64,000 bases of DNA from an uncultured Bacteroidales bacterium (GCA_944322715.1 CALUPT010000009.1:56671-120670); one strand, 5' to 3'; shown: positions 1-56,240, counted from the stretch's first letter. Translations and numbers: made by a program. Notes: generated by a model not told the origin, from the sequence alone.

Positions 1-509
1 TCTGCAGGGTCGAACTTCTGTACAGATACGGAGGAGTGTGGTTAGATGCGACAGACTTCGTGACATCACCGGTACCTCAATGGATAATGGATGAGGATTT
101 CTTCATCTACCTCAGCGGAGACACTCTCAAAGGCTCGTATTCATTTGTGCAGAACTGTTTTTTCAGATCCCGGAAAGGGAGTTATCTCATCAAGACATGG
201 CGGGCCGCCATCATGGCATACTGGACTTCCGAAAACTGCGCAATAGACTACTTCGTCCATCAGTTGCTTTTCAAGCTGACCGTAATGAACAACCCTTTGG
301 CAAAGCGATACTTCGACAGAATGCCGCATCTGATCCAGGATCCCACACATAACCTCTGGTGGAAATACAGGGACATGCCGTTCGACAGGACGACCTTTGA
401 AAAAGAGACTTCCGGCTCCTTTTTCCAGAAGACTGAATACAAGTCAGAAGCTGCAATGCATCCCGTACCGGGCAGTTTCTCGGATATAATGCAGAACATG
501 TACAAATGA
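1..509 (+). CDS. capsular polysaccharide synthesis glycosyltransferase (Caps_synth-like), 5' end outside window
   Basis: Frame is open to the window edge. Upstream of the listed Met it reads RVELLYRYGGVWLDATDF, the family signature. Stop overlaps the next start (ATGA 506-509). Confidence 0.7.
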   Translation, partial: CRVELLYRYGGVWLDATDFVTSPVPQWIMDEDFFIYLSGDTLKGSYSFVQNCFFRSRKGSYLIKTWRAAIMAYWTSENCAIDYFVHQLLFKLTVMNNPLAKRYFDRMPHLIQDPTHNLWWKYRDMPFDRTTFEKETSGSFFQKTEYKSEAAMHPVPGSFSDIMQNMYK

Positions 510-1372
510 AGTGCACGAAAAGACTTTTCCTTTTTGCAGGATACGACAGTCAGGGTATTGTCGGTCCATCTTTGGAATATTATGTGCAGGCACTTGCCAG
601 ATACGGGGATATTGTGCTGACAATGGACACCGACTGCCAGCCGGGGATGCTCGACAGGCTGTCGGGGAAAGTTTTGCACGCACACGCGGAAAGGCATGGA
701 GAATATGACTTCGGGTCATACAAGCGTTCCTATATGTGGATATCCGGACACACGGGGCTGTCCGGATATGATGTCTGTTATCTCGTCAACGACTCCGTAT
801 TCGGTCCTCTTGCCGATATCGGACCATATCTCGAAAAGATGGAGTCCCTCGGCACGGATGCTTTCGGCCTGGTCCTGAATCCCCACCGGAGGCACCCTCA
901 TCTGCAGTCATGGTTCATAGGAATGCACAGGAAAGTGTTCCTGTCCGACATGTTCTGCAGGTTCATCTCCGGTGTGACTGCCCAGAAAGACAAAAATGCC
1001 GTATGCGACCTTTACGAAACGGGGCTGACAAATCTGTTCGATTCGGAAGGATTCAGTTATGATGCGCTGTTCCGTGTCAAAGGGAAGAAAATATACAATG
1101 CCGTCGAGACGCTATGCAGGCTCGGACTGCCTTTCATCAAGAAATCAGCGTTCACAAGGCACGGAGGCTCGCTCGGCAGACAGATAAGGCATATTCTGGA
1201 AAATACCGAAGACAAGGCTCTGACATCGGCCGTAATATCCGATATCGACCGGCTCTACGGTCCGGGCTACTGGTCCCGGCTGACCTCCTGCTCCAGGACA
1301 GGAGTCTGCCTCAGATATTTCCGGTATATGATCAATAAACTTTTCCCGAAAAAATCAGTTTTGTTCCGGTAA
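506..1372 (+). CDS. rhamnan synthesis protein F (RgpF)-like glycosyltransferase
   Basis: 288-aa ORF. Motifs FAGYD...YVxALxxxGDIVLxMD...YLVNDSVFGP...QSWF are typical of RgpF-family proteins. Translationally coupled to the upstream gene. Confidence 0.65.
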   Translation: MKCTKRLFLFAGYDSQGIVGPSLEYYVQALARYGDIVLTMDTDCQPGMLDRLSGKVLHAHAERHGEYDFGSYKRSYMWISGHTGLSGYDVCYLVNDSVFGPLADIGPYLEKMESLGTDAFGLVLNPHRRHPHLQSWFIGMHRKVFLSDMFCRFISGVTAQKDKNAVCDLYETGLTNLFDSEGFSYDALFRVKGKKIYNAVETLCRLGLPFIKKSAFTRHGGSLGRQIRHILENTEDKALTSAVISDIDRLYGPGYWSRLTSCSRTGVCLRYFRYMINKLFPKKSVLFR

Positions 1373-1574
1373 TAAATACTCAAAAAAGCATCTCTAAAAA
1401 AGAAAAACAGTAAAAAAGAGAAAAATCTTTCCTCACTTCGTATAAACCTGTTGCCGGGGTCTTGACCGGTATAGTCTGTCCCGATATTTTAGCGGGAAAT
1501 ATCCTGGCCGTCATCCTTCCTCCAGCCGTTTCGGCAGGAATTATTGCGGGCAGGAATAAAAACAGTATTGATAT

Positions 1575-2513
1575 ATGGAGAGAGAGAATGACAACAGGAC
1601 GTCCGCACAAAGGTATGTGGACATCCTGACAGAAGCCGGCTTCAAGGCCGTCTTCGGGGTGGAGAAGAACAAGGACGTACTCATCGGTCTGCTGAACGTG
1701 GTACTTCCGGCTCACCGCAGGGTCACTGACCTCGCATATTCGACGACGGAGGTGCCGGGGTTCACGATGTCGAACAAGAGCGTGAGGCTTGACCTCAGGT
1801 GCACGGGCGAGGACGGGACCAGGTTCATCGTCGAGATGCAGTGCTACCGCCAGCTGAATTTCTTCAGGAGATGCGTGGAGTATGCCGCCAAGGTCTATGA
1901 CTCCGGTTCAGAACGCGGGGACGCTCACGGATACGACATTCCCCCGGTGTATTTTGTCGGCCTGCTGAACAGCGGCGTGCCGAAGTTCGACAGGAGCGAC
2001 AGCGCTGTCTGGAGGGACAGGTATGTCTCGGAATATACATTCCGCGAAAAGGAGAGCCACGAGGTGGTGGATGAGACGATTTTTCTTATCTTTGCCGAAC
2101 TGGACCGCTTCGACAAGAAGCTGGAGGAGTGCGGGAGCATGGCGGACAAGTGGTTCTATTCGCTGAAGCATGTCGGGAGGATGGAGAGGCTGCCGGAGGA
2201 GTTGAAGGTGAAGGTGTTCGAGAGGCTGTTCGAGGCGTGCGAGATAGCGAGGTTCACCCCGGAGGAGAAACTGAAATACGAACACGATATGATGACCGAA
2301 CGTGACTATACGGATATCCTTGATACCTGCAGGGCAGAGGCTTTGGCTGAAGGCGAAGCTATAGGGCTTGCCGAGGGCGAAGCGAAAGGCGAAACAAAAG
2401 GTAAGACCGAGGGAAAAATGGAAGTCGCCCGGGCCATGAAAGCGAAAGGTCTCGGGATGGCTCTGATATCGGAATTGACCGGACTTTCAGAGGAGGAGAT
2501 CATGAAATCTTGA
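1575..2513 (+). CDS. Rpn family recombination-promoting nuclease / PD-(D/E)XK putative transposase
   Basis: N-terminus RYVDILTEAGFKAVFG...NKDVLIGLLNVVLP and a C-terminal (A/G)EGEAxG repeat followed by GLSEEEI are hallmarks of the Bacteroidales PDDEXK_2/Rpn family. Confidence 0.8.
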   Translation: MERENDNRTSAQRYVDILTEAGFKAVFGVEKNKDVLIGLLNVVLPAHRRVTDLAYSTTEVPGFTMSNKSVRLDLRCTGEDGTRFIVEMQCYRQLNFFRRCVEYAAKVYDSGSERGDAHGYDIPPVYFVGLLNSGVPKFDRSDSAVWRDRYVSEYTFREKESHEVVDETIFLIFAELDRFDKKLEECGSMADKWFYSLKHVGRMERLPEELKVKVFERLFEACEIARFTPEEKLKYEHDMMTERDYTDILDTCRAEALAEGEAIGLAEGEAKGETKGKTEGKMEVARAMKAKGLGMALISELTGLSEEEIMKS

Positions 2514-2550
2514 AAGCCTGACGGACAATTCCAACTTACATAAACTATAA

Positions 2551-2611
2551 GTTTATCCGCAAAATACCTCTTGATATGACAGCAGATGGGGGTAATTTTG
2601 CGGATAAGCAT
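2551..2611. repeat. inverted repeat/hairpin (GTTTATCCGCAAAATACC ... GGTAATTTTGCGGATAAGC); its right arm is the left member of a 16-bp long-range inverted pair
   Basis: Read directly. Arms at 2551-2568 and 2591-2609 are complementary apart from one extra A. 2596-2611 (TTTTGCGGATAAGCAT) is the exact reverse complement of 11764-11779. May also act as a bidirectional terminator. Confidence 0.8.
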
Positions 2612-2732
2612 TTATGTCTATGTAAAACAAGGAAGTGTTTTCGCTTATAGAATCGATCGGAATCGGAATAGCAAATCTATCACCTGACCGGCTCAAGGAT
2701 ATGGTTGAAAAGTATTTCAGGATTTAATTGTG

Positions 2733-3692
2733 TCAAACCAATAGTTTTGCAACAACTGAAGTATAGTGTTGGCTTAAATATTTTGCATACTTATTTATAT
2801 TCGGAGCGACGGATAAGCTTTCATCCATTGCTCTCGTAAAACTATCATAATCGGTAACTCTTTTTGTCATATTACCCAATTCAAAATAATCAGTATCTGC
2901 GTTATCTTCAAAACGTGATATGATATTACAACCCGATGACAATTCCTCAAGGAAACGTGGCGTCACTTGATTAAAACCATTTGTTCTTTTTTCGCCTCCA
3001 TCCATTCCCGGAGTAGAATAAAAAGCCACCTTACTCTTTTTCAACAAAGAAAAATAATCTTCCCTCGTTATGATATTTCCTACATATTCACCCGTATTCG
3101 TATAATACGGGAAATTACCATTTGATATTTCCTTTCTATATACATATTTCAAAGGATGATTTTTGGCATATTCTTCCAAATATTTCAGCAATATTGAATT
3201 TTGCCTTCCAACCAACACTAAATCATATTCTTTTTTAAATTCGGCGTCCGTATCTAATTTATATTTGTCCGGTAACGTAAGCGGCATATGAGAAACTTCA
3301 CGTGCAGGAGTATTAGCCATTAGAAACTCATATACTTCACGGCTTGATACATATAATCTTTCAACATTCGAATATGCCTTATAAAAGGCGGACAATTGTT
3401 CACGCTTTAGATAAAAATCTACAATGCACACTTTATGATTCTTTGCATTCATAAAATTGTTTCTTGTCCTTGCAGATATATCAAAATGGAAACACTTGCT
3501 ATTCCAGGTAAATATTTTGTTAGGGCTCAATCCTATTTTATCAATAAAACCAAACCCTCTTTTCCTTTTAATATTTTTATATAATTTTGCCCCGGGAATA
3601 TTTTTCAAAAGTTCGTCTTCCCATTCATAGAGTAAATCAAATGATGGCCAGTGTTCATAAGACCTTTCCGATATTATTAAAAAATTATCCAT
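2733..3692 (-). CDS. hypothetical protein in polysaccharide cassette (possible glycosyltransferase-like)
   Basis: 319-aa ORF with AT-rich codon usage matching its neighbours. Start overlaps the stop of the upstream gene. No motif I can name with certainty. Confidence 0.45.
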   Translation of the reverse strand: MDNFLIISERSYEHWPSFDLLYEWEDELLKNIPGAKLYKNIKRKRGFGFIDKIGLSPNKIFTWNSKCFHFDISARTRNNFMNAKNHKVCIVDFYLKREQLSAFYKAYSNVERLYVSSREVYEFLMANTPAREVSHMPLTLPDKYKLDTDAEFKKEYDLVLVGRQNSILLKYLEEYAKNHPLKYVYRKEISNGNFPYYTNTGEYVGNIITREDYFSLLKKSKVAFYSTPGMDGGEKRTNGFNQVTPRFLEELSSGCNIISRFEDNADTDYFELGNMTKRVTDYDSFTRAMDESLSVAPNINKYAKYLSQHYTSVVAKLLV

Positions 3693-4938
3693 TATGACAA
3701 TATTTTCTCATTCATTAAATCCATTGAAGCCCCTATAGCAACATCCATATTATAATACTCCCATTCGGCAAATCTACCCAACAGATAAAAACCTAATGGT
3801 TCAAGTATATTTTTCAATTCTTTAATCATACCACGGGTATCGGCTTTCTGTATCGGATATGTATATTTTTCATAATTGTGAATAATATATCTGGGATTAT
3901 AAGGCATTCGGGACAGATTTTCAAGAATCTCATCCTTAGAAATATAATCCGTGAATTCCACTGTTCCCGTCATAATGCCGGACGAATTGTTGCTATTTGA
4001 GAAATTCCCTGTACAGATTATTCTATGTGCATCATACTTCTTATCAGGCAAATACATCCAACTAAATGGGTTCTTATCTATTTTACAAAAAACGGAAGTA
4101 GTACCATGACTTTCCAATTCATCTATAGATTTTATAAAGCCGTACAGGTTCGTTGCACCGGCCAATAAAGATGGAAGATATTTAATGTTACCGCTAAAAA
4201 TGACTCTGTCAAATTCCATTCCTTCCACAAGCCACTTGCTTTCACACCTAGTTATTCTGAAAATTTCTTTATTGTAGATTATTTTCAATCCTGCAGACAA
4301 TCTGTCAGCCAGAAACTGCGACCCTCCTTTTATCGGATAATAAAACGAACTATGCACAAATTGACACTCCTCAATATGGTTCATATTATTGAATATCATT
4401 TCTTCAACTGTAGGCATAGGTAATTTGCCAGACAACCAAGAAAGAGGAACTTGAGTCAGATCACGTCGCCAAACCTTATAATTATATGGTTGAAAATATA
4501 GATTGTACAAAGTTTTACCAAACCTTTGGAGTAAGAACTCATCAAAATTTTGAGGTTTTATCTTCCCCCCCTAGCAATTTTAAGCAAATCGGCAATGAAT
4601 TTTTTCTGAATATGATCCTCAAAGCAATACATATGATTTTCAATAGGATACGGAACATTGTCCATTCCTTCAAACACAACAGAAGAATTCCTGGAAGCTT
4701 TTATAAATTCTTTCTCAACGTTAAAATGCTTCCAAAACCATTCTAATACATCTTCTCGTTTTGTATTGAAAACATGTCCCCCTGTTCTGTGAAACAGACA
4801 TCCTTTGATAATATCACATTTCATCATGCCACCCGGACGAGAATCTTTTTCAAACACAATGACATCGTTACCTGCATCTTTAAGCATATTGGCAATCGCC
4901 AATCCTGACATTCCTGCACCAATTACTGCAATATTCAT
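3692..4938 (-). pseudogene. FAD/NAD(P)-binding oxidoreductase (UDP-galactopyranose mutase / amine-oxidase-like), split by a frameshift in a G7 tract
   Basis: N-terminal ORF (4558-4938) starts MNIAVIGAGMSGLAIA (GxGxxG Rossmann motif). The second frame is open from 4570 and reads GGKIKPQNFDEFLLQRFGKTLYNLYFQPYNYKVW. The frames meet in C7/G7 at 4565-4571, and one extra G gives a single ~415-aa protein. Confidence 0.75.
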
Positions 4939-5008
4939 TTCTCCTTGTTCTTATGCGTTATTTCATATCTTTTATGTCCACTAAAATCAAGAAAACATAT
5001 AATGATTT

Positions 5009-6310
5009 TCACATTATATTTGCCGTGAATTTGTCATAAAAATCGGCTCGGATTTTCATCATCGCTTCAGGATTATAGTATTTCCTAACTTTAATTACTG
5101 CATTTTCAGACAGGCTCTTCTGCAATACGGTATCTGAAGACAGCATAACCATGGCTTTCCCGAACTCCTGCGGAGAATCTGCTATGATACAGTCAATTCC
5201 GTTGGTAAAATCTTGCCCTTCAACACCTTTACTTGTCGTAATGAACGGCGAACTGCTCCATACTGCATCAAGAATCTTCATTCTCATTCCACTTCCTATG
5301 CGTATCGGAACAATCGTTATTTTCCCATTGAGGAAAGTGTGTAGATCCTCAACAAATCCCATAAATTCCACTTCTTTATTATGCTTGTGTATTGTCCGTT
5401 TCGCTTTACGACTCCAGTTGCCTATTATATATATTTTGAAATCAGACAAATTTTCCTTGAGTACAGGCAATATGCATTCACAGAACCAGTTTACACCATC
5501 GTAGTTAGGAAAATGGTCCGACCCTCCGACAAATACAAATTCAGGTGTGCAAGTCTTGAACGGGACAAGTCTGTCCATTTTTATGACAGCTGGAGATACA
5601 TATATCTTCTCTTCGGGAATATATTTTGAAAGGATATTTTTGTCAGTTGCAGTAAGAGTGATTATGTAATCATATCTGCTCAACATGGAAATTTCTTTGT
5701 CTTTTGCCTGCTGATAGCGAGCAATGTCCATTAATGTCGGAGATTGAAGCATTGCCAGTTCATTCCCTCTGCGGATATAGTCTATTTCATGCTGCACGTA
5801 GACTTTTACAGCATTTTCAGGTAAGAAATAGCACATATCCAGCAATTCTCTGAACTCCGTCTGTATAATATCAAAGCCGCTCTCGGCAACATTATGGACG
5901 AACTCACAATATCCGGGATCCAGTTCTGAAGGACGCAGATTGATAAGTGTCCTTATGCGTAGCATCTTGTCGACATTGGGCCTTGAAGGCCAGTATTTAA
6001 AGAAAATTCGATTGTATTTTCTTGTAAATGAAGAGGAAAGACAGTGAAGCACGTGTGCCCTTAATGGCAACCACGATTTGCGTTTTCCTTCTTTTTTCGA
6101 GTATATGAAAAAACCGACATCCGGCCATACCCGTTTCAGAGCATCTATATCTTTCTGATGTCCTGCACGTATTAGTATGGACACCGAATGTATTTTCCTT
6201 AAATAATCTATCATGGAAAATACAGCCTGATTCCCTCCGCTATTTAAAGGGTATGGAATAAAAGGAGATATGAACAATATTTTCTTTACAAAATTTTGCA
6301 TTCTATTCAA
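5009..6310 (-). CDS. glycosyltransferase, GT-B fold (family 4/1-like)
   Basis: 433 aa. N-terminus KILFISPFIPYPLNSGGNQ and C-terminal GFVEDL...PIRIGSGMRMKILDA resemble GT4 enzymes. Confidence 0.7.
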   Translation of the reverse strand: MNRMQNFVKKILFISPFIPYPLNSGGNQAVFSMIDYLRKIHSVSILIRAGHQKDIDALKRVWPDVGFFIYSKKEGKRKSWLPLRAHVLHCLSSSFTRKYNRIFFKYWPSRPNVDKMLRIRTLINLRPSELDPGYCEFVHNVAESGFDIIQTEFRELLDMCYFLPENAVKVYVQHEIDYIRRGNELAMLQSPTLMDIARYQQAKDKEISMLSRYDYIITLTATDKNILSKYIPEEKIYVSPAVIKMDRLVPFKTCTPEFVFVGGSDHFPNYDGVNWFCECILPVLKENLSDFKIYIIGNWSRKAKRTIHKHNKEVEFMGFVEDLHTFLNGKITIVPIRIGSGMRMKILDAVWSSSPFITTSKGVEGQDFTNGIDCIIADSPQEFGKAMVMLSSDTVLQKSLSENAVIKVRKYYNPEAMMKIRADFYDKFTANIM

Positions 6311-6327
6311 TTATTTGAACACTTGCC

Positions 6328-7248
6328 TTATATTGCTTTATGCCGATGAAATCTTAAATATTTAAAAAATAATTTAACGCTATATCTCGGCGTGATACAA
6401 TATATTGATTTACAAAGACTGAAAAGGTCTTTATTCGAATAATTCCACTGCAACGTTTCTCGTAATAAACATCTTATATATCTATATAATGACTGTTTAA
6501 AATATCGATCTTTCCTATAGGAATAATTTTCGCGTAACCAGCGGATGAACATTAAAGTAGCTGTTACTTTCTCTTTATTATATGATTTATCATTAGATAT
6601 GTTGACACCTTCTGCATTTCTCCATAATACAGGATATCCGTGTATTGCAATCGCGCCATCTGCCTCTTGGGCCATTTTGAAAAATGTGGCATCATCCGAA
6701 CACCATGCTAATGGAAAATGAACAAATCCTTTGACCTTATGGTATAGATTTGCACTGAAAATGAATTCACATGCAGCGGAGTTCATTTTACCGAATAACT
6801 TATCACATAGCATTTCTTCCGCTGTAACAGTGTCTTTAAGGCATGAATTTGTTGATATCAATTCATTGCGTTCGGATACAACCGCCAACTGTATCCGAAA
6901 AAATTCCTTTTGCGGGTATTTGGATAAAGTATCATAAAATCTTGACACTATATCAAAAGGCATGATATCATCATCGGAAAAGAAAAAAATATACGGTTCG
7001 AGCGCCATATCAATACAGCGTTCCCAATGCGACAAAAGGTCTTTTGAACCAAGATTTTCCGGGAATTTCTTATAGACAATATCTATTACATCTTCATATT
7101 CCCTCACTACAGAATATATGTCATCCGGAGAATTATCATCTCCAATATATAATGTAAAATCTTTACAAGACTGTCTCGCTATAGAATCAAGTGTTTGAGA
7201 CAGAAAGCGAATTTTGAATGCAGGTATTACAATAGCCAACTTATTCAT
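6328..7248 (-). CDS. glycosyltransferase family 2
   Basis: LAIVIPAFKIRFLSQTLDSIARQSCKDFTLYIGDDNSPDD is the GT-A N-terminal motif with a DxD-type acidic patch. Confidence 0.8.
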   Translation of the reverse strand: MNKLAIVIPAFKIRFLSQTLDSIARQSCKDFTLYIGDDNSPDDIYSVVREYEDVIDIVYKKFPENLGSKDLLSHWERCIDMALEPYIFFFSDDDIMPFDIVSRFYDTLSKYPQKEFFRIQLAVVSERNELISTNSCLKDTVTAEEMLCDKLFGKMNSAACEFIFSANLYHKVKGFVHFPLAWCSDDATFFKMAQEADGAIAIHGYPVLWRNAEGVNISNDKSYNKEKVTATLMFIRWLRENYSYRKDRYFKQSLYRYIRCLLRETLQWNYSNKDLFSLCKSIYCITPRYSVKLFFKYLRFHRHKAI

Positions 7249-7261
7249 TGGGTCAAGTCAT

Positions 7262-7297
7262 GTTTTCCGGCAAAAATAATTATTTTTGCCGGAAAAC
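7262..7297. promoter_or_regulatory. perfect 36-bp palindrome carrying two back-to-back TAnnTTTG -7 boxes (candidate bidirectional promoter/operator)
   Basis: GTTTTCCGGCAAAAATAA|TTATTTTTGCCGGAAAAC, read directly. TATTTTTG lies at 7281-7288 on the + strand and is mirrored at 7271-7278 on the - strand. It sits between divergent starts 7248 (-) and 7305 (+). Confidence 0.5.
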
Positions 7298-7304
7298 ATA
7301 CAAC

Positions 7305-8342
7305 ATGAGTTCAGTAAGCATAATTATTCCGGTCCATAATACAGCCGCATATTTAGAAACATGTATTGATTCTGTTCTTAACCAGACGTTAAAGGACATA
7401 GAAATCATACTTGTAGAAAACGGATCATCCGACAATTCTTATCGGATATGTCTGGATTTAGCCTTTAAAGATTCCCGCATAAAAGTGTTGCAGATTGATG
7501 TTGCCGATCTTTCCACTGCAAGGAACCGAGGAATAGAAATGGCTACATCCGAATATATCGGATTTGTGGACAGTGATGATTATATTGATCCGGATATGTA
7601 CTCAACAATGTATGACTGTGCAACAAAATATAATGCAGATATAGTATGCTGTAATTTTATGTATGTCTTTCCTGATGGAAGGAAATTGCAAAACTTCGCA
7701 GACACAGGAAATATACGTCTCATTTCACCGAAAGAAATGATAGTCTCTATTTTTCAGGAACGGATAAGTTCTTCATCTTGGAGTAAAATATATAAAAAGG
7801 ATATTTTCTCAAAATGGACTTTCCCTGAAGGATATACGTTTGAAGACCACCGTTTAATATATAAAATCATTGCGGACTGCAATATCTGTGTTTATATAGA
7901 TAAGTCATTGTATTACTACCTGCAGAGAGAAGACAGCATTGTCCACGATCTGACATTCAAACGGAGATACCATTATTTCCTCGCAGATTATGAAAGAATT
8001 CTCTTTGCACAGAATTACCCTGAATTTTCAGACACAGAAAAAGCGAGAATAATAAAAAAACAGTTCGATATATGTTTCAATAATCATTTTGGAGGATTTA
8101 TGACTGTTCCTGGTGCACCGGAACAGACTCAAATGATCAATGACATGAAACATAAGTTGCTATCATTTCTTAAAAGTGGATATATTTCCCGACATGACAG
8201 GAGAGCTCTTTATACTATAAAATATCTGTGGTATATATACGATTGGACACATTTTTTGAAATTCCGTAGGCGACGTGCAAGGAAGACAAGGTTAAAGTCT
8301 ATCCAATCCGGAAAACCAGGAATGCACATATTCAATGGATAA
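7305..8342 (+). CDS. glycosyltransferase family 2
   Basis: MSSVSIIIPVHNTAAYLETCIDSVLNQTLKDIEIILVENGSSDNS...GFVDSDD is a classic GT2 pattern. I prefer the Met at 7305 because the track start at 7248 would read through the promoter palindrome. Confidence 0.8.
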   Translation: MSSVSIIIPVHNTAAYLETCIDSVLNQTLKDIEIILVENGSSDNSYRICLDLAFKDSRIKVLQIDVADLSTARNRGIEMATSEYIGFVDSDDYIDPDMYSTMYDCATKYNADIVCCNFMYVFPDGRKLQNFADTGNIRLISPKEMIVSIFQERISSSSWSKIYKKDIFSKWTFPEGYTFEDHRLIYKIIADCNICVYIDKSLYYYLQREDSIVHDLTFKRRYHYFLADYERILFAQNYPEFSDTEKARIIKKQFDICFNNHFGGFMTVPGAPEQTQMINDMKHKLLSFLKSGYISRHDRRALYTIKYLWYIYDWTHFLKFRRRRARKTRLKSIQSGKPGMHIFNG

Positions 8343-9371
8343 TTGCCTCGATATTTCTATTGAGGATTCTTTCATTTTGTCCAGAACTGTACCTTGCATT
8401 TTTGACATAGCATGAATTGCCGACACAAAAGATTCTACCGTGTTTTCACAGAAAATACAATTATTATTTGTACAGTAGTCTCTGATAGACCCTACATCAC
8501 TGGCAATTATCGCTAATCCCATTGACATGGATGTGGTAATCACATTACTTCCTACCGTATCGTCCATAATATTTAAAGAAATATCAGAATCTTGCATTAA
8601 TCCTCTTAAAATATCTTCTGGGACAAATCCGACAGCCCTGACATTGTCATATTTTTGAAATTCAGGATCCAGTTTCCTCTTTCCATGACATATTATGAAA
8701 TCAACATCATGACATTGCTTAATGATATCTGTCAATATGGAATAATTTCTCTGCATATTCCCCATGGAAATAACAACAGGTTTGTCTGATTTATGCGCCG
8801 AGTTTGTTCTTCCATAATATGATGAATCGACATAATGTTTGCCTGTATCTATTTTTAAGGACTTGATCTCAAATGAAGAGAAGAATGAAGATGCAGACGA
8901 TCCTAAAGTAAGCAAAACGTCAATGTCCCGTACACTGTTTTTTATAAAATTTTCATAATCATCACAATATGACTTATACCATGATGGAGTAAGATGCGCC
9001 ATCGCATATATTTTTAACATTGGCACATGCTGACGAATATAATTCGCCAATATATTTTGTGGCACATGCGGAACAAGATATTCTAACAAAAATATTTCGT
9101 CCTCTTGTCTGAGTATTTTGGAAAGCGATTTTGCAATATGATAATAATGCCTCTTGAATAATACATTAGGCTTGAAGATATGGATTTTCTCTAGAAGTTT
9201 ACAAATTTTAGCATTATTTGATATTTTAAATTGCGATGGAGGCGGGATGGCAATCATTTTATATTGGTCAGCATATGCAGAAACAAGCATATCACACATG
9301 TGCTTCATCCCTGCATGATTTCCTTCGGTATTTTCCCATTCCTGAACAATAAGATATTTCATAGAATTCAA
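8292..9371 (-). CDS. glycosyltransferase, GT-B-like
   Basis: 359 aa. The C-terminal half (RAVGFVPEDILRGLMQDSDISLN...GSNVITTSMSMGLAIIASD) resembles the GT1/GT4 nucleotide-sugar binding region. Confidence 0.55.
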   Translation of the reverse strand: MNSMKYLIVQEWENTEGNHAGMKHMCDMLVSAYADQYKMIAIPPPSQFKISNNAKICKLLEKIHIFKPNVLFKRHYYHIAKSLSKILRQEDEIFLLEYLVPHVPQNILANYIRQHVPMLKIYAMAHLTPSWYKSYCDDYENFIKNSVRDIDVLLTLGSSASSFFSSFEIKSLKIDTGKHYVDSSYYGRTNSAHKSDKPVVISMGNMQRNYSILTDIIKQCHDVDFIICHGKRKLDPEFQKYDNVRAVGFVPEDILRGLMQDSDISLNIMDDTVGSNVITTSMSMGLAIIASDVGSIRDYCTNNNCIFCENTVESFVSAIHAMSKMQGTVLDKMKESSIEISRQLSIEYVHSWFSGLDRL

Positions 9372-9393
9372 TCTTTGATATTTGCAACAACTG

Positions 9394-10185
9394 CTATTTC
9401 CTTTTGATTGTAAGCATAATCCAATATTTCTCAGGGTGATTGAAAATGCTGTGTTTAAATGATATTACCTTTTTTGCACCTGTATTTCCAATCATGGCTC
9501 CTCCTGCCGTTGTTGTATATATCCCGGAATATTTGCCTTCCAAATATGATTTGGATGAATAAAATCTGTCAGTCAATTTCCCGTGTGACCAATGCCTGCA
9601 TTTCATAGGAAGTACTTTGGAAACTATGCCGTATTTTTCGAAAGAATTTATGCAGAAGTCTTCAACGTAAAGATCGAAAGAAAAGGAAGGATCAAAGCGT
9701 AGCGAATATTTTCCGATAAGGGTTGAATGGACTATAAGACACTGACAATCAAAAGTATCTACTATCCCTTTTTTCAATAAACCTTTTTCTTTTTTTATAT
9801 TTTCCCCATTCCTGTCCGATTGCCAGCATTCCCCGACGGAGTATCTGTAGATTTTCTTTTCAGTCACTATTGACTTAGCACCGATTGGCCCGTATAAATT
9901 ACCTGTAGACAGATTGTTGAGTTTTGACGCAATGGATTCCTTCGCTTCCCAGTCTTCATGACAGAATACAAACCATGCCGGCTCGGCGAAATCATATCCA
10001 TCGAGAAAAAAATTATAGCGGGATGCTATCCCGATATTCTCGCTCCTGTTGTCAAAAGCAACAAAATCCGCCCCGGAATTATAAACGTTTTTCCGGACCA
10101 GCCTGTCATACATTTTAAAATCCCGGACTACGGATATAAATATTATTTTCGGCAGTTTATAATCACTGTTGCGTGTCTCGCTCAT
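9394..10185 (-). CDS. hypothetical protein, glycosyltransferase-like
   Basis: 263-aa ORF, first gene of a two-gene minus-strand unit in the AT-rich cassette. IIFISVVRD...FDN...HEDWE is weakly GT-A-like. Confidence 0.4.
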   Translation of the reverse strand: MSETRNSDYKLPKIIFISVVRDFKMYDRLVRKNVYNSGADFVAFDNRSENIGIASRYNFFLDGYDFAEPAWFVFCHEDWEAKESIASKLNNLSTGNLYGPIGAKSIVTEKKIYRYSVGECWQSDRNGENIKKEKGLLKKGIVDTFDCQCLIVHSTLIGKYSLRFDPSFSFDLYVEDFCINSFEKYGIVSKVLPMKCRHWSHGKLTDRFYSSKSYLEGKYSGIYTTTAGGAMIGNTGAKKVISFKHSIFNHPEKYWIMLTIKRK

Positions 10186-10212
10186 TTAATGTTGCTTGAG
10201 TTCTATTGTTTT

Positions 10213-10839
10213 TCAAAAATAACGATTAATTCTTGTATCACAAAAATAAACAGAAAAGCCGAGATCGGTAAAGTCAGTCGAAGCCACATATAAATCGAAA
10301 AGGTCACGTCCTTTCTTACGTTGGTACAAGGCACGGAACTTCGTTCCCAAAAGTTCGTTCAGCTGATATGTCGTTATTTCGCACCTACCGGAAAACCAAG
10401 TGTTTTCCATTTCAAACGGGATTTTCACCAACCCTAACTCATTAAAATGCTCGAAGCAGTTTATCTCTATCTTCAGTCTCAATGGAACGGTAGGAGGAAT
10501 TTCCGATTCCATGCGGAACAACATTGTATTGTTATAGCGTTTTTGTTTCGTTACCCGCTCCGGCATAAAGGCCAAGACCTCGCCAAGTCGGAACAGAATC
10601 GGTTTGATTGGTCCTGGATTGATTTGCACCAAGTCTATATCCTCACTGTATCTCGGTTGGGGGGAAAGGTATAGTTTATGAAGGGCAGTACCTCCGCGAA
10701 AAGCAAGTTGAGAGGCAAGAAACTCATCGCTGAAAATAGCGACCAATGCACGTGAAATAACCAGGTCTTGTTCCACCTGTGCATTGTCGCTCCAAGGAAC
10801 TTGCCTGTTCCATTGGGCTATGGACGCTCTGTTTATCAT
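10213..10839 (-). CDS. nucleotidyltransferase AbiEii/AbiGii toxin family protein, probably 3'-truncated
   Basis: IAQWN...VEQDLVISRALVAIF...LAFRGGTALHKLYL...RYSEDIDLV is the AbiEii NTase motif. Only 208 aa. The last ~24 codons are AT-rich junction sequence. Confidence 0.75.
   Translation of the reverse strand: MINRASIAQWNRQVPWSDNAQVEQDLVISRALVAIFSDEFLASQLAFRGGTALHKLYLSPQPRYSEDIDLVQINPGPIKPILFRLGEVLAFMPERVTKQKRYNNTMLFRMESEIPPTVPLRLKIEINCFEHFNELGLVKIPFEMENTWFSGRCEITTYQLNELLGTKFRALYQRKKGRDLFDLYVASTDFTDLGFSVYFCDTRINRYF
10214..10248 (-). promoter_or_regulatory. two TATTTTTG -7 boxes upstream of the 9394-10185 gene
   Basis: The + strand has CAAAAATA at 10214-10221 and 10241-10248 (minus strand TATTTTTG). 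The proximal box is ~29 nt from the ATG at 10185. Both lie inside the AT-rich tail of the abiEii ORF. Confidence 0.4.
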
Positions 10840-11639
10840 ATTTCGTCAATTTCTATATTTAGATTTACATTTATTTTCCAACGGCTGTTTTTGCCAGCAG
10901 AATTACCCGTATGGCGGGTACTTAACGGGACATACCGGAATCGCTTGGAATAGGTTGTCAATTCCTTATAAAGTATATCGGCAACTTCCTGCTGCTGTAA
11001 TACTTCCTCCAATATATACCCCAAACGTTGTATGGTAGCAAGCGTAGTATAATTGAAAAGCGATTGCGCCGCATTTGTGAATTCTGTTTGCTCCGATAAT
11101 TCTTCCAGAACAGTCGCAACACGGGAGAGTCCTCCGACATATTGTTCATATTGTACGAGGTCGAGAGCCGTCAATTCGGCATTGGAGTAACGGATAATCC
11201 CGGTTTCCGAATTTTTCGTCAGCAGGAAACCAGCCGGTATCTCCTTACGATATGACCATGACAACAGGTTGTTCTTTGCAACGGACACCGAAGCCTTCGG
11301 AAATATAGTAGTTACTGAAAACTTCTGCGGTCGTTGATGCGCTGCGCCCAATAGTTCTGCCGCACTGAGCAGACTTATATAGTAGGGCTTATTCAGACAA
11401 CTCATCAGTTGGTCTATATAATAAAGAGGCGGGACTGTTCCCTTTGCTGCATATTGAGGTGGAATAACCACATAAAAGCCACGATATACCGGCACGATGA
11501 TTTTTTGTGCCGATAGACGGAACAATTCGTTTTTGACGACCTGTTCCGAGAAATCAGGAAACCTCTTCCGCACATCCTCAAAAGCAAAGGTGGGCAGTCC
11601 GTTGATTTCTCTATCCCGTATCCATTCTCTAACTGTCAT
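10836..11639 (-). CDS. type IV toxin-antitoxin system AbiEi family antitoxin
   Basis: 267 aa. N-terminal wHTH-like region (FAFEDVRKRFPDFSEQVVKNELFRLSAQKIIVPVYRGFYVVIP). Overlaps the toxin start by 4 nt. Confidence 0.8.
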   Translation of the reverse strand: MTVREWIRDREINGLPTFAFEDVRKRFPDFSEQVVKNELFRLSAQKIIVPVYRGFYVVIPPQYAAKGTVPPLYYIDQLMSCLNKPYYISLLSAAELLGAAHQRPQKFSVTTIFPKASVSVAKNNLLSWSYRKEIPAGFLLTKNSETGIIRYSNAELTALDLVQYEQYVGGLSRVATVLEELSEQTEFTNAAQSLFNYTTLATIQRLGYILEEVLQQQEVADILYKELTTYSKRFRYVPLSTRHTGNSAGKNSRWKINVNLNIEIDEI

Positions 11640-11652
11640 GTGCGCTGTTTTA

Positions 11653-11687
11653 GTGCAAAGGTAATCAAAATCCGATTACCTTTGCAC
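11653..11687. promoter_or_regulatory. 14-bp-arm perfect inverted repeat overlapping the abiEi -7 box (candidate AbiEi operator)
   Basis: GTGCAAAGGTAATC-aaaatcc-GATTACCTTTGCAC, read directly. The minus-strand TACCTTTG (11656-11663) lies 16 nt upstream of the ATG at 11639. Confidence 0.5.
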
Positions 11688-11763
11688 CATTTTGGCGCAT
11701 TATCTACATTGCAAACTTATTTCTGCTGCAACAGATGCGCCAGTGCCGGGTCAATTCTCTATG

Positions 11764-11779
11764 ATGCTTATCCGCAAAA
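11764..11779. repeat. right member of the 16-bp long-range inverted pair (ATGCTTATCCGCAAAA)
   Basis: Exact reverse complement of 2596-2611. Followed by a degenerate partner, TTTGCAGGA, at 11794-11802. Confidence 0.8.
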
Positions 11780-11875
11780 AAATATCCTTAATGTTTGCAG
11801 GACCGAGACCCGGGAGGGCCTTGCCGAAGGCAAGGGATCGTTTATTTATGGGGGAAAAGACCTCCGCTGCAGGAA

Positions 11876-12817
11876 TTACCGGGAGAGCATACCAGGGATT
11901 GAGCTGATATTGTCCGCAATCATCTGCACAAGGCGCTGGCGGGCTTCGGTGCTTGCCCATCCTATATGGGGCGTGAGTATCAGCCGGTCCAGGTTGCGGA
12001 CATTCATAAGAGGGTTATCAGACGGAAGCGGTTCGGCAGTGAATACATCCACACCTGCACCGGCTATCCGGCCCTCATCGATCACCTTTGCCAGAGCGGC
12101 TTCATCCACTATTCCGCCGCGGCCCATATTGACAATATATGCGGATGGCTTCATCATGCGAAGCTCCGTCTCCCCTATCAGTCCGGCAGTTCTCTGATTG
12201 TAAGGGGCATGGATGGAAATTATGTCGGATTCCGACATGAGGGTGTCGAGACTTACGCTCGGATAGTCTTTGGAATGTGATGTGCCGGATGTCGAGAAAT
12301 AGGATACGGCCATGCCGAATGCTTCCCCGACCATCGCTACCCTGCCGCCGATATTGCCAAGACCTATTATGCCGAGTCTTTTGCCCCGGAGTTCGAAGAA
12401 CATCCTGTCCACATTGGTGAACAGTCCGCTGCAGGAATATTCGCCCGACTTCACAAAGTCATCAAAATACCTGCATTTCCCGACAAGGGAAAGTATCATC
12501 ATGAATGTCATCTGCACTACGGAGTCGGTGGAATACCCGACCGCATTACGGACAGGGATACCCTTTGATGCCGCATACTCCAGATCGATATTGTTGACCC
12601 CGGTAGCCGCCTCGCAGATGAGACGGAGAGATGGGGCTGCATCAATCAGTTCCTTGTCCACAAGTATCTTGTTGATGATCAGAATCTCGGCATCTTTCAC
12701 CCTTTCAAGGGACTCTTCCCTCGATGATGTCTGATAACACTCCAGTTCCCCGAGTGCAGATATCGGGGCAAATGAGACATCTCCCATTGTGGCCGCATCC
12801 AGAAATACGATCTTCAT
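11876..12817 (-). CDS. D-isomer-specific 2-hydroxyacid dehydrogenase (glycerate dehydrogenase-like)
   Basis: 313 aa. GIIGLGNIGGRVA NAD-binding motif and the catalytic-region pattern NMGRGGIVDE...TPHIGWAS. Confidence 0.85.
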   Translation of the reverse strand: MKIVFLDAATMGDVSFAPISALGELECYQTSSREESLERVKDAEILIINKILVDKELIDAAPSLRLICEAATGVNNIDLEYAASKGIPVRNAVGYSTDSVVQMTFMMILSLVGKCRYFDDFVKSGEYSCSGLFTNVDRMFFELRGKRLGIIGLGNIGGRVAMVGEAFGMAVSYFSTSGTSHSKDYPSVSLDTLMSESDIISIHAPYNQRTAGLIGETELRMMKPSAYIVNMGRGGIVDEAALAKVIDEGRIAGAGVDVFTAEPLPSDNPLMNVRNLDRLILTPHIGWASTEARQRLVQMIADNISSIPGMLSR

Positions 12818-12925
12818 CCCTGTCAGTCATTTTGATGCCGCCATGACAGTCCGGACCGGAATGGATTTCCACTTCCAGTCCCGTTTCCATAGCCATGACA
12901 GCATCCTGATAAAACAATCAGTCAC

Positions 12926-12958
12926 AAAAAAGGGGATGACATTTGCTCCGTCATCCCC
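12926..12958 (-). terminator. rho-independent terminator downstream of tRNA-Leu
   Basis: The minus strand reads GGGGATGAC-ggagcaaat-GTCATCCCC followed by TTTTTT. Confidence 0.7.
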
Positions 12959-12961
12959 CGG

Positions 12962-13045
12962 TGCGCAGGATCAGAGTCGAACTGACATGCCATTTCTGGC
13001 ACTACCTCCTGAGAGTAGCGCGTCTACCAATTTCGCCACCTGCGC
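12962..13045 (-). tRNA. tRNA-Leu (anticodon CAG)
   Basis: Hand-folded cloverleaf: acceptor GCGCAGG/CCTGCGC, anticodon stem CTACT/GGTAG with loop CTCAGGA, long variable arm TGCCAGAAATGGCAT, T arm GTCAG-TTCGACT-CTGAT, discriminator A. CCA is not fully encoded. Confidence 0.9.
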
Positions 13046-13059
13046 CTCAAAAGTGACTG

Positions 13060-13067
13060 CAAAGATA
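13060..13067 (-). promoter_or_regulatory. TATCTTTG -7 box upstream of tRNA-Leu
   Basis: The + strand CAAAGATA lies ~15 nt upstream of the mature tRNA 5' end. Matches the Bacteroides TAnnTTTG consensus. Confidence 0.35.
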
Positions 13068-13169
13068 AGAAAGATTTTTCAGATAGCAACTTTTACAATG
13101 AAAATATCTGCAAAATATCTGTCGAAATGTATAAATGCTGAAATTCATCGCAGGGTATCATCCTGAATA

Positions 13170-13976
13170 TCAAATCTCTACATTGATGTCGAATGTCGTT
13201 TCCCAGTCATTGATGACAAGTGTCACATCCGCCTTCGCATAGTCTATCTTGATATCCACATCTTCAAGACTGTCTGTCCCCCAGTCATACCCGCTCTCTA
13301 TGATGTATTCCCCCACGGCGAATTCTCTCAGAACGCCATCTCCATCTGAAATTACAAGTCTCAACGAACTGTCCACCTGTCTCGGAATCCTCACGCTGCA
13401 GCAGCCTTTTTCATCAATTCCGGGCACAACTCTGAAATTTCCCGGAACAGGAGCGCCATCCTTTCCATATCCGCATACATTCCCCTCGATGGCAATACTG
13501 AAATCCGCAGGTACATCCGCCACCATTTCGACAGACAGCACGCAGTAATTCTTGTACAGTACAACAGGTACCGTGACCGTTTCCGCAGCAGTATCCACAT
13601 ACGCGGAAAACATGTTTACGGGCGGGCACTCTTCTCCGTCAGGTATGTGCAGCCCCGCCCAGTCCGAAACCAGCATACCGGACAGGTCATCATACCCTGA
13701 CTCGACGGAACAGACATTGACCCATATACCATTTTTCGGCACTTCAACACGGTACGGCTCCCCATACCTTCCATTGTCGAGGACATATCTGTGAAGAAAG
13801 CCGTCCGCAGACAGAAGACTCAGAAAAGAAGAATCCGACCTGTCTGTATCTACCCTGCTGAAATCAAGCATCAAGACACAGGGACACCCGCTCCTGTCCT
13901 CTTTCACAGAACACCCCATGGATGTGGCAATGACAACTAATCCGAACAACACGACGGACGACAATCTTCCAGACAT
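13170..13976 (-). CDS. FimB/Mfa2 family fimbrial (type V pilus anchor/terminator) lipoprotein
   Basis: Preferred start is MSGRLSSVVLFGLVVIATSMGCS (lipobox), then EDRSGCPCVLMLDF, typical of the Mfa2/FimB N-terminus. Last gene of the operon. Confidence 0.6.
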   Translation of the reverse strand: MSGRLSSVVLFGLVVIATSMGCSVKEDRSGCPCVLMLDFSRVDTDRSDSSFLSLLSADGFLHRYVLDNGRYGEPYRVEVPKNGIWVNVCSVESGYDDLSGMLVSDWAGLHIPDGEECPPVNMFSAYVDTAAETVTVPVVLYKNYCVLSVEMVADVPADFSIAIEGNVCGYGKDGAPVPGNFRVVPGIDEKGCCSVRIPRQVDSSLRLVISDGDGVLREFAVGEYIIESGYDWGTDSLEDVDIKIDYAKADVTLVINDWETTFDINVEI

Positions 13977-13989
13977 GACATTATATGAT

Positions 13990-14979
13990 TTATATTTCAA
14001 CTGACTGTGATATCCCAGGTTCCCAGTCGGAAACGGATATCGTAAACTCCGCATCCTGCGTGGTCACAGGCCAGTCGGCAAACCGGGAACCCAGCCTCGT
14101 GATCCTCAACTCCGATATCTCGTATTTGTGGTTGCTTTCTATCCCTTTGATGGAAATCGGATACCAGTACACCCTGCTGTCCATCTCCATTTCCACGACC
14201 AGCCTCGTATATCTCGGACACCACTCGGTCTCGATGCTGTCAGTCTCGGTAGGGTTAGGATAGCAGTACAGATAATGCGGCTGTTCGTATGAAGTCCCGT
14301 ACTCAATCACCGTATTGATATTAGGATCAATGACAAGATAGTTCATTTCAGCATGATATGTCCTCTGGTTATACCATAATGCCGGTGCTCCCTGCCCATC
14401 ATATCTGACATCAGCCGCCACATTCGCGAGGAATACACTCACCAGCTTGAATTCCTTTTCCCTGTACTGTTCCAGAGCAAGTGCATTGGTAATCTTATGG
14501 ATACTTATCCTCGCCGCAAGACGCTTCACCTCGACTTCTATATCGGTGGCACCCACTACGGTCTCCACTTTTGACCCGTACATGACGAAGTGGCCTTTCA
14601 TGTTTTCATCAAGGCGGGATACGGACTCATCCAGCATCTCCTTGTCTGTTATCCCGGTAATCTGAGGCGCATTCACAACGGCGACTACGCGCTTAAGGCC
14701 CGCCGTACATTTTATGGTCAGGGATGCAGCATCCTCCGTCATTGCCCATGAATCCAGCATTCCATCCTGCCGGAAGACAAAGACCTGCAGAGAGTTCACA
14801 TTGTCTTCTCCCTCGGAGGTGATATACTTTGTCTTTGCTACCGGGACCGAGACATTGATCTCCACCTCCTCACCTTTTCCGGCCACCACCGGCGGCTCAT
14901 TCACTGCAATCTGCTCCTTGCTGCAGGAGACGCTGCACACTGCTGCAATGAAAACTGCAGCGAAAAAACTTCTTTTCAT
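13990..14979 (-). CDS. fimbrillin (FimA/Mfa1-like type V pilin) lipoprotein
   Basis: MKRSFFAAVFIAAVCSVSCS lipoprotein signal. SLQVFVFRQDG...RVVAVVNAP pattern is typical of Bacteroidales fimbrillins. Sits in the expected position between the accessory genes and the Mfa2-like gene. Confidence 0.6.
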   Translation of the reverse strand: MKRSFFAAVFIAAVCSVSCSKEQIAVNEPPVVAGKGEEVEINVSVPVAKTKYITSEGEDNVNSLQVFVFRQDGMLDSWAMTEDAASLTIKCTAGLKRVVAVVNAPQITGITDKEMLDESVSRLDENMKGHFVMYGSKVETVVGATDIEVEVKRLAARISIHKITNALALEQYREKEFKLVSVFLANVAADVRYDGQGAPALWYNQRTYHAEMNYLVIDPNINTVIEYGTSYEQPHYLYCYPNPTETDSIETEWCPRYTRLVVEMEMDSRVYWYPISIKGIESNHKYEISELRITRLGSRFADWPVTTQDAEFTISVSDWEPGISQSVEI

Positions 14980-15010
14980 AAAAAACGCACATTAAATATT
15001 AATACTATGT

Positions 15011-55457: not shown

Positions 55458-56240
55458 TTACCAATTCTTCTCTTTCTGCCTTGATTTCAGCAAGGCGGCC
55501 TTCTCCTTGTTGACCTTCTCCTGGGTCTCCTTCTCCTTTGCCTGTATCGCCTTCAGCATCTGCTGGGCTGCCTGGGGCGTTATCTTAGGCTGTGCGCCCT
55601 GACTGCCCTGCCCCTGATCCTGATTCCGGTCCTGGTTCTGATCCTGATTCTGGTCCTGATTCTGATTCTGGTCCTGATTCTGATCCTGGTTCTGGTTCTG
55701 GTTCTGATTCTGATCCTGGTTTTGGTCCTGATTCTGGTTCTGGTCCTGATTCTGGTTCTGATCCTGATTGTCCTGACCTCCGCCACCGTTCTGCTGGTCC
55801 TTCAGCTTTCCTTTGGCATAGACATAGTTTTCCTTTGCATCCATATCCCCGGGATTCCTCAACAAGGATTGGGTATAGGCATCGACAGCCGCCTGCCAGT
55901 CCTCCATCTCTGCTGCGGCATTACCGAGATTGTAGTAATAGTCGGCCCCGTACTGCGATGCCGGCGCAACATCCTTCAGCGTCTCATAACTTTTCCGCGC
56001 CTGCTGCACATCACCGTTGCGGTACAGCGTATTTCCCAGGTTATATCTCGCTGCAAAAGAGGTGGAATCCTTGACCAGCGCCCTCCTGTAGTCTATCTCG
56101 GCCTCGCTGTAGCTCTCCTTTCTGAAATCCCGGTTGCCTTTGCGTACCTCCCTGCGGTCTGTCTGTGCGCTCATTACAGCCCCCGAAAGCACAAGGGCCA
56201 CCGTCCACAGGAAAATATTTCTGACCATTCCCATACGCAT
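55458..56240 (-). CDS. BatC-like TPR protein with Gln/Asn/Asp-rich repeat tract
   Basis: Start at MRMGMVRN (ATG at 56240, abutting the batB stop). TPR (ARYNLGNTLYRNGDVQQARKSYE), then (QN/QD)n, then a Lys-rich tail. Confidence 0.75.
   Translation of the reverse strand: MRMGMVRNIFLWTVALVLSGAVMSAQTDRREVRKGNRDFRKESYSEAEIDYRRALVKDSTSFAARYNLGNTLYRNGDVQQARKSYETLKDVAPASQYGADYYYNLGNAAAEMEDWQAAVDAYTQSLLRNPGDMDAKENYVYAKGKLKDQQNGGGGQDNQDQNQNQDQNQNQDQNQDQNQNQNQNQDQNQDQNQNQDQNQDQNQDRNQDQGQGSQGAQPKITPQAAQQMLKAIQAKEKETQEKVNKEKAALLKSRQKEKNW
55615..55770. repeat. 26 in-phase hexanucleotide units (CTGRTY on + strand) inside batC
   Basis: Counted by hand. 24 of 26 units fit CTG(A/G)T(C/T). They encode alternating Q-(N/D) on the minus strand. 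Confidence 0.85.

Follow-up and report, generated by a model that had tools for sequence, protein, structure and literature searches.

The Correia elements of Neisseria are small palindromic repeats of bacteria, and repetitive extragenic palindromic (REP) sequences, which occur in hundreds, flank on both sides the genes of HUH/Y1 enzymes called REP-associated tyrosine transposases (RAYTs). Known invertons are usually a few hundred bp long, flank promoters and depend on a dedicated recombinase. Miniature inverted-repeat transposable elements (MITEs) have been reported in Porphyromonas gingivalis genomes (PMC2575886, PMC5771137). In E. coli, Kingston et al. showed Rpn proteins to be promoters of recombination that does not depend on RecA (PMC5350276). 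The rpn genes are multi-copy and horizontally spread but reported not to be autonomously mobile, the route of their duplication is an open question, and a tract of 4-amino-acid repeats is the hallmark of the RpnL/RpnS toxin–antitoxin defence genes (PMC10400941). Here we describe a 64-kb stretch of DNA (the ‘window’; coordinates count from its first letter) from an uncultured member of the Bacteroidales, close to Candidatus Cryptobacteroides, in which a 9.2-kb block of sugar genes and an AbiE gene pair lies between two inverted copies of a 16-mer, next to an rpn gene. An initial annotation of this sequence had proposed that the two 16-mers are the terminal repeats or scars of a mobilised island, sites for inverting the block, or two copies of a dispersed terminator hairpin. 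We consider it probable that the two are homologous and represent termini of a small palindromic repeat, MITE-like and specific to this lineage, rather than functional ends of the 9.2-kb block.

The left 16-mer, the rpn unit and a palindromic repeat family

The + strand of the window reads TTTTGCGGATAAGCAT at 2596–2611 and ATGCTTATCCGCAAAA at 11764–11779, and, as first annotated, these are exact reverse complements. A third copy, on the minus strand at 2549–2564, has two mismatches to the 16-mer; in all 64 kb there are just three occurrences of the 12-nt core TTATCCGCAAAA. The bare pair carries no statistical weight, because exact long-range matches of 16–17 nt are not rare in the window: two other inverted matches (2013–2029/27111–27127 and 939–954/59740–59755) and a direct 17-mer (32296–32312/55097–55113) have no apparent meaning. 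The initial annotation had likewise called the match alone not significant, with ~0.5 inverted 16-mers expected per 64 kb. What gives the pair its significance is thus found solely in other loci, where the left copy corresponds to the exact terminus of a multi-copy unit and of a repeat family.

We used four Rpn homologues (P0002, P0004, P0011 and P0015), among many at 92–95% protein identity, to fetch other contexts of the rpn gene. The gene is part of a unit of 1,241 nt that is found in at least five unrelated chromosomal contexts (the window, L103/104, L105/106, L107–110 and L132–137; Table 1), with 90.5–93.9% nucleotide identity. Homology starts at ~1370–1371, right after the stop codon of the upstream gene, and ends in each context at 2611/2612, the last base of the 16-mer (...TTTTGCGGATAAGCAT); past ...GATAAGCAT the flanks diverge at once in all contexts. 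Since homology stops at this base in every context and the flanks then diverge, the left 16-mer is where the rpn unit, which is multi-copy, terminates, and it is not an end of the sugar/AbiE block. As is usual for repeats, several contigs are interrupted at the unit or close to it. A search for a left terminal inverted repeat of the unit gave no similarity above that of shuffled sequences.

The window gene carries the 4-amino-acid repeats that mark RpnL/RpnS genes (PMC10400941). Rpn paralogues (proteins are listed P0001–P0033, with 12 paralogues taken into the alignment of the repeat tract) have lengths of 296, 300, 308, 312, 316, 320, 324 and 328 aa, differing in steps of four residues within an (E/K)GxA tract; at the same locus, a conspecific contig (L002) encodes an Rpn protein of 316 aa, as compared to 312 aa in the window. 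The (E/K)GxA tract corresponds to the RpnS-type hypervariable repeat of PMC10400941, and with its nuclease domain and variable 4-amino-acid tract the gene is a bona fide member of the Rpn (YhgA-like) family. It shares with the intragenic RpnL–RpnS toxin–antitoxin genes (PMC5350276, PMC10400941) the PD-(D/E)XK N-terminal domain (PF12784, TIGR01784), the C-terminal HTH_Rpn_C region, a repeat count that varies between paralogues and strains, the existence of multiple paralogues and proximity to another defence gene pair, here AbiE. It differs from them in that it lies in a sharply bounded 1.24-kb unit, recurrent in unrelated loci, with a MITE-like palindrome at its end. The literature searched contained no account of an rpn unit that has sharp boundaries and a palindrome of transposon type at its end. 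Viral contigs searched with the Rpn protein gave no match.

As the initial annotation had it, the left end lies just downstream of the Rpn nuclease gene: the stop codon ends at 2513, and a hairpin starts ~35 nt further on. The local pairing predicted for the third copy of the core also held. Folded as single-stranded DNA, positions 2546–2614 give −14.8 kcal/mol (z = −4.4), and none of 200 shuffled sequences folded as well. The arms of the hairpin are AAGTTTATCCGCAAAATACCTC and GGGTAATTTTGCGGATAAGCAT. A comparison by eye with the ends of the long copies of the repeat family described below gave ~18/22 and ~19/24 matching positions, and at its start the loop also resembles the interior of the long element. 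Because the arms match the ends of the long copies, we regard the window hairpin as an internally deleted member of a lineage-specific MITE-like family. A fuzzy scan of the window with 22-nt probes (up to 6 errors) detected only the two hairpin arms above background. No compensatory changes were seen in the hairpin among the paralogues; changes in the right arm create mismatches. In the locus of an rpn paralogue with 87% protein identity (L121), homology extends only to the equivalent of window position ~2521, and a GC-rich stem-loop then takes the place of the palindrome. This loss of homology, together with the different stem-loop, indicates that the palindrome is a separable module.

The mismatch-tolerant 16-mer search of the fetched loci revealed further copies of the repeat away from rpn termini (Table 1). 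Two long, non-coding, strongly self-complementary copies in L132, each placed just after a stop codon, end in ATGATTATCCGCAAAATACCCC ... GGGGTAATGAATGCGGATAGACAT and have ~22-nt terminal inverted repeats; the same arms are found in the mini-copy of the window (2549–2611). The long copies are accompanied by target duplications of AAACATTA (8 bp) and TATTGTA (7 bp), positioned 1–2 nt off the assumed ends. Flanking duplications of 7–8 bp are a signature of transposition. In total, we counted two long and two partial copies, five mini-copies at rpn units and one orphan, the right 16-mer of the window. In two of the five rpn-unit contexts, a family copy lies <300 nt from the unit. A hidden Markov model (HMM) of the family found no strong copy in 1.3 Mb of loci from other species and no long copy in the window, and none of the fetched loci contains a transposase gene with matching ends that could represent an autonomous element. 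Rfam identified only a tRNA, with no RNA family at either repeat.

Two sets of additional matches were rejected as family members. Eleven metagenome matches to TTATCCGCAAAA-N10–40-TTTTGCGGATAA (nine distinct loci; GC content 34 to 57%) have no homology to the window genes or to the repeat HMM, and we judged them to be unrelated hairpins or terminators. None of 33 matches to TTATCCGCAAAATACC in viral contigs has a partner arm, several have a common flank, and their number is close to the chance level.

The family resembles MITEs in being non-coding, 170–215 nt long, with ~22-nt terminal inverted repeats, long internal self-complementarity and 7–8-bp duplications, and in having several intergenic copies just after stop codons as well as internally deleted and orphan derivatives. 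It differs in that the fetched loci hold no autonomous partner with the same ends, and in that a duplicated protein-coding unit (rpn) has an internally deleted copy as its fixed 3′ end. With REP/RAYT systems it shares the physical link between a nuclease gene and short palindromic repeats that are also found alone. However, the window enzyme belongs to the PD-(D/E)XK group, the palindrome is one-sided with no repeat-like end on the left of the unit, the long copies have target duplications of the kind typical of DDE transposition, and the copy number is not high: the 64-kb window has only the mini-palindrome and the orphan 16-mer. Novelty at this locus is restricted to the family of repeats and the discrete rpn unit of this uncultured lineage of the Bacteroidales.

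A bounded rpn unit with a transposon-type palindrome offers a testable handle on how rpn genes move, with one-ended or in-trans mobilisation via a MITE end as a candidate route. If the association between rpn and the palindrome holds genome-wide, it would be of interest for the mobility of defence systems.

A separate observation concerns two other rpn alleles, whose proteins have 63% and 92% identity to that of the window. Their downstream regions have a sequence of ~110 nt in common, in otherwise different loci (L111–L120, 3910–4010; L132, 11054–11200). The shared sequence consists of a terminator-like stem, AAGAGGGCGGG...CCCTCTT, plus TTTATTCGTACTCC..., and the 63% allele has TTTGCGAATAAGC 17 nt after its stop codon. 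The shared sequence and the position of TTTGCGAATAAGC suggest that the 3′ ends of rpn genes are modular and recombining.

The right 16-mer and the relation between the two sites

The right 16-mer, when reverse-complemented, matches the right arm of the rpn unit at 16/16 positions; read directly, it matches the left arm and its flank with 18 identities in 21 alignment columns, the gap column included. Both scores exceed those of all 300 shuffled sequences. Since the repeat is palindromic, the orientation of the site is ambiguous. The initial annotation had described both ends as copies of one palindromic element. We agree that the motif at both sites is probably a terminus of the family, but a true hairpin exists only at the left; the right site would be an orphan fragment of 16 nt. 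The degenerate partner proposed for it at 11794–11802, TTTGCAGGA, is present, but the local fold is no better than that of shuffled sequences (z = −1.1; 24/200).

On the reading that we prefer, the right 16-mer would be the decayed remnant of another copy of the repeat that once lay downstream of the dehydrogenase gene, and both repeats would be inert passengers that mark a permissive intergenic zone. This zone, between the glycan locus and the dehydrogenase/tRNA flank, may have collected a series of insertions: MITE-like repeats, the rpn unit, the low-GC sugar cassette and AbiE. Several observations weigh against common descent of the two 16-mers or against such a passive history. Only 16 nt are common to the right site and the family (or the 18 identities in 21 columns of the direct alignment), and any extension of the similarity into 11780–11875 is marginal: p is ~0.013 for one of the long copies, and a second gives no significant match. 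The site was missed both by the 22-nt fuzzy scan with up to 6 errors and by the repeat HMM. The two other exact inverted matches of 16–17 nt in the window, which are apparently due to chance, keep coincidence possible. Lastly, the orphan is identical to the arm of the neighbouring unit. Of the four other units, only that of L132 has this same arm, and the remaining three (TTTTGTAGATAAGCAT, TTTTGCAGATAAGCAT, TTTTGCGGATAATCAT) have changes at one or two positions. The identity is a hint that the two sites share a particular history, which a model of passive relics does not explain.

Two other assignments of the right site were rejected. It is not a mini-element with both unit ends, since it lacks similarity to the rest of the rpn unit. 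Nor did it prove to lie inside the AbiE cassette: clear homology to an AbiE locus of an unrelated genome (L124) stops at ~11751, similarity beyond that point is marginal (14/500 shuffled sequences were as good), and other AbiEi homologues diverge even earlier than L124. One conspecific contig (L004; coverage ~4.5x, metagenome) ends at window position 11762, 2 nt past the right 16-mer; at this depth, the likeliest cause is a lapse in coverage rather than structural variation.

Orientation separates the functional readings of the pair from the preferred one. Family members read ATG... at the outer left and ...CAT at the outer right, and the bases next to the block are ...GCAT at its left border and ATGC... 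at its right one. Hence both 16-mers face outward, with the block between two repeat copies and not inside one, and with termini that face away from it the block is not what a transposon with these ends would enclose. Only one gene order and orientation was found, at 99–100% identity, in 23/23 contigs with the exact dehydrogenase protein and 23/23 contigs with the exact Rpn protein; these are counts of assembled contigs, the two sets overlap, and a rare inversion would lie below assembly resolution. Our scan covered, within 1–16,900, every open reading frame (ORF) of ≥60 aa except those inside a larger one, and 10 of the larger ORFs beyond, which are housekeeping or glycan-utilisation genes. 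No transposase, integrase, or serine or tyrosine recombinase was found among these ORFs. Taken together with the mosaic nature of the block (see below), the geometry, the single assembled orientation and the lack of a recombinase among the scanned ORFs leave the island-end and inversion readings unsupported. Of the three meanings first offered, that of a dispersed palindromic element comes closest.

That third meaning specified a terminator hairpin, and this part does not fit: the right site has no hairpin, and the left one is not a canonical terminator. Intrinsic terminators have a short GC-rich stem, a loop of 3–8 nt and a T tract; the left hairpin has a long AT-rich stem and a loop of ~18 nt, and a scan with a terminator consensus found nothing terminator-like at 2546–2614. 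It may nevertheless contribute to termination of the convergent transcripts of rpn and of the sugar-cassette gene nearest to it.

Coincidence is one alternative: the left 16-mer would be the end of the rpn unit, and the right one an unrelated intergenic sequence that matches by chance. The expectation of ~0.5 exact inverted 16-mers per 64 kb, the presence of three long-range ones, the lack of convincing similarity beyond 16–21 nt, and a local ‘hairpin’ at the right site that is no better than shuffled sequences are all consistent with this. However, the match coincides to the base with the end of a repeat family, by our estimate roughly a 10^-3 event for a random pair, and both orientations of the right site outscore all 300 shuffled sequences against the unit end. 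Moreover, other fragments of the family lie near other rpn units, so orphan copies are to be expected. We therefore regard coincidence as unlikely.

We also give a low probability to a historical junction, in which the 16-mers were once contiguous just downstream of rpn, as a 32-bp perfect palindrome or as the abutted termini of tandem copies, and the dyad later received the sugar and AbiE DNA, possibly once the palindrome had broken or through Rpn-promoted illegitimate recombination. This scenario would account for the identity of the 16-mers at positions where three of four other units differ, for a block that begins right after the left terminus and stops right before the right one, and for the replacement here of a TAAAATT-like sequence that follows the unit in three of four other contexts; Rpn proteins do promote RecA-independent recombination in E. 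coli (PMC5350276). Nonetheless, no empty site was recovered among the loci compared, 121 nt (2612–2732) and 12 nt (11752–11763) separate the termini from recognisable cassette DNA, a mosaic block implies several events, and the scenario is built from inference alone.

A more active role for Rpn is a further possibility, one that we consider quite improbable. The rpn unit might itself be mobile, or be mobilised in trans via its 3′ repeat end, with the Rpn nuclease acting on TTATCCGC palindromes; the MITE-like copies and orphans would then be non-autonomous derivatives or footprints, and the pair around the block a result of Rpn-promoted capture of foreign DNA. As no repeat was found at the left end of the unit, movement would, speculatively, need one-ended or in-trans mobilisation, or Rpn-promoted recombination. 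If true, this would amount to a partnership like that of REPs and RAYTs on a different enzyme fold.

An active inversion switch, with the inverted 16-mers as sites at which a recombinase reverses the intervening 9.15-kb segment, is very improbable. Exact inverted 16-nt repeats do flank the segment, and Bacteroidales are known for DNA inversions at polysaccharide loci, which likewise have inverted repeats beside glycan-synthesis genes. The present locus differs from those in its 9.15-kb spacing, in the lack of a serine or tyrosine recombinase among the scanned ORFs and in having one orientation: neither set of 23 assembled contigs includes the inverted arrangement. In addition, the left repeat lies in a dispersed unit and is hence not a locus-specific site. 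Least credible of all is a composite transposon or genomic island whose inverted ends a transposase would use to move the block, since, although the ends are identical and inverted, the composition is foreign and a gene of a ‘putative transposase’ family lies next door, the ends point outward relative to the terminal inverted repeats of the family, the left 16-mer belongs to a separate multi-copy unit, the right element lacks a distal end, the block was found nowhere else among the loci compared and its AbiE part travels alone, and rpn genes are reported not to be autonomously mobile (PMC10400941). With the island and switch readings removed, the locus shows that the terminus of a dispersed repeat can mimic the borders of an island.

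The block between the repeats and its flanks

The GC content of the window falls from 54–57% to 33–36% at ~2500 and is back at 44–45% by ~10,500. The right 16-mer thus lies where AbiE ends, not at a compositional edge. The repeats had been placed at the edges of a block with foreign composition; this fits the left one, which coincides with the drop at ~2500, but the right one lies ~1.3 kb beyond the low-GC edge. In other genomes the AbiE pair stands alone in unrelated neighbourhoods, and nucleotide homology to the L124 locus ends 12 nt short of the right 16-mer. The solitary occurrence of AbiE elsewhere and the position at which this homology ends mark the block as a mosaic, built by two or more acquisitions.

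Table 1 Features of the window, and copies of the rpn unit and the palindromic repeat in other loci
Feature	Position or locus	Strand	Length or identity	Remarks
Capsule/rhamnan-type genes	1–1372	+		Pfam, NCBIfam, PADLOC
rpn unit	1371–2611	+		~200-nt leader, rpn gene, 3′ mini-palindrome; blastn of 1200–3000 against paralogous loci
rpn gene	1575–2513	+		Rpn family PD-(D/E)XK nuclease, RpnL type; C-terminal tract of 4-amino-acid repeats; PF12784 E = 2e-45; TIGR01784 101 bits (cut-off 52)
Palindromic mini-repeat	2549–2611		63 nt	Internally deleted MITE-like copy; arms 2549–2570 and 2589–2611; fold z = −4.4
Left 16-mer	2596–2611	+	16 nt	Outermost 16 nt of mini-repeat and of rpn unit
Glycosyltransferase cassette	2733–10185	mostly −		Low GC (33–39%); GT1 x2, GT2 x2 (one on +), split Glf-like gene, hypothetical ORFs
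AbiE cassette	10213–11751	−		Includes putative promoter/operator region; L124 nucleotide homology ends at ~11751
AbiEii, truncated	10213–10839	−		Pfam and PADLOC
AbiEi	10836–11639	−		Pfam and PADLOC
Right 16-mer	11764–11779	−	16 nt	Putative orphan terminal fragment of same repeat family; orientation ambiguous, repeat palindromic
GC-rich stem-loop	11819–11835	+		CCTTGCC-GAA-GGCAAGG, then T-rich tract on + strand only; between 16-mer and dehydrogenase stop codon
D-2-hydroxyacid dehydrogenase gene	11876–12817	−		First gene of conserved right flank; NF006263 417 bits
tRNA-Leu(CAG)	12960–13045	−
FimA-like fimbrial genes	beyond 13045	−
rpn-unit copy	L103/104		93.9% nt identity to window; 1266 nt aligned	SusC/SusD-GH123 polysaccharide utilisation locus
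rpn-unit copy	L105/106		91.2% nt identity to window; 1270 nt aligned	Alpha-2-macroglobulin/PBP region
rpn-unit copy	L107–110		91.2–91.4% nt identity to window; 1204–1255 nt aligned	Sel1-repeat region
rpn-unit copy	L132–137		90.5–90.8% nt identity to window; 1225–1267 nt aligned	Large hypothetical genes
Long repeat copy	L132, 4235–4407		173 nt	Strongly self-complementary, non-coding
Long repeat copy	L132, 6223–6435		213 nt	Strongly self-complementary, non-coding
Partial repeat copy	L103, 9664–9792			7 nt left of L103 rpn unit
Partial repeat copy	L107, 1583–1661			255 nt right of L107 rpn unit

We compared the right flank with that of 80 related species, of which the nearest species representative has a dehydrogenase protein 87% identical to that of the window. 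The fimbrial–tRNA–dehydrogenase side is often conserved, and synteny is lost downstream of the dehydrogenase gene. No proteins of the block or of the left flank were found in the dehydrogenase loci of these relatives, and among conspecific contigs the block was seen only at this locus. The comparison that the initial annotation had called for thus confirmed that the block is absent from syntenic regions of relatives, but it yielded no clean empty site among the loci compared, nor the same element elsewhere. A tRNA-linked island was considered and discarded: no repeat of the tRNA-Leu sequence of ≥11 nt was found in 1–12,950. Positions 1–14,000 have no match in the E. coli genome, so that E. coli is not the source.

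The AbiE pair has the expected composition, an AbiEi antitoxin and an AbiEii nucleotidyltransferase gene in one operon, with AbiEii covering profile positions 1–188 of 260. The window AbiEii has 208 aa, as compared to a full 263 aa in the conspecific contigs L003 and L005. What at first looked like a 424-nt insertion in L003 and L005 is a 424-bp deletion in AbiEii of the window, with its junction within 10274–10288, and the AbiEii toxin gene of the window strain is probably inactive. A perfect 14-nt inverted repeat, GTGCAAAGGTAATC-N7-GATTACCTTTGCAC, lies at 11653–11687, 14 nt upstream of the AbiEi start codon. It holds a Bacteroidetes -7-like element, TAccTTTG, and is nearly invariant upstream of AbiEi homologues at five loci in other assemblies; judging from this position and conservation, it is probably the autoregulatory operator and promoter of AbiE.

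Three further features of the window stand apart from the repeats discussed above. A perfect 40-bp palindrome, ATGTTTTCCGGCAAAAATAAT|ATTATTTTTGCCGGAAAACAT, is found at 7260–7299, at the divergent starts of two family-2 glycosyltransferase genes, and spans the ATG of the + strand gene. The adjacent minus-strand ORFs 3692–4510 and 4558–4938 match, respectively, a C-terminal and an N-terminal portion of a FAD enzyme similar to UDP-galactopyranose mutase; this gene seems to be split, by a frameshift or as a pseudogene, and conspecific contigs show the same split. Finally, tandem repeats with an 18-nt period (CTGATTCTGGTCCTGATT-like) at 55630–55760 lie inside a minus-strand ORF and presumably encode a low-complexity peptide repeat.

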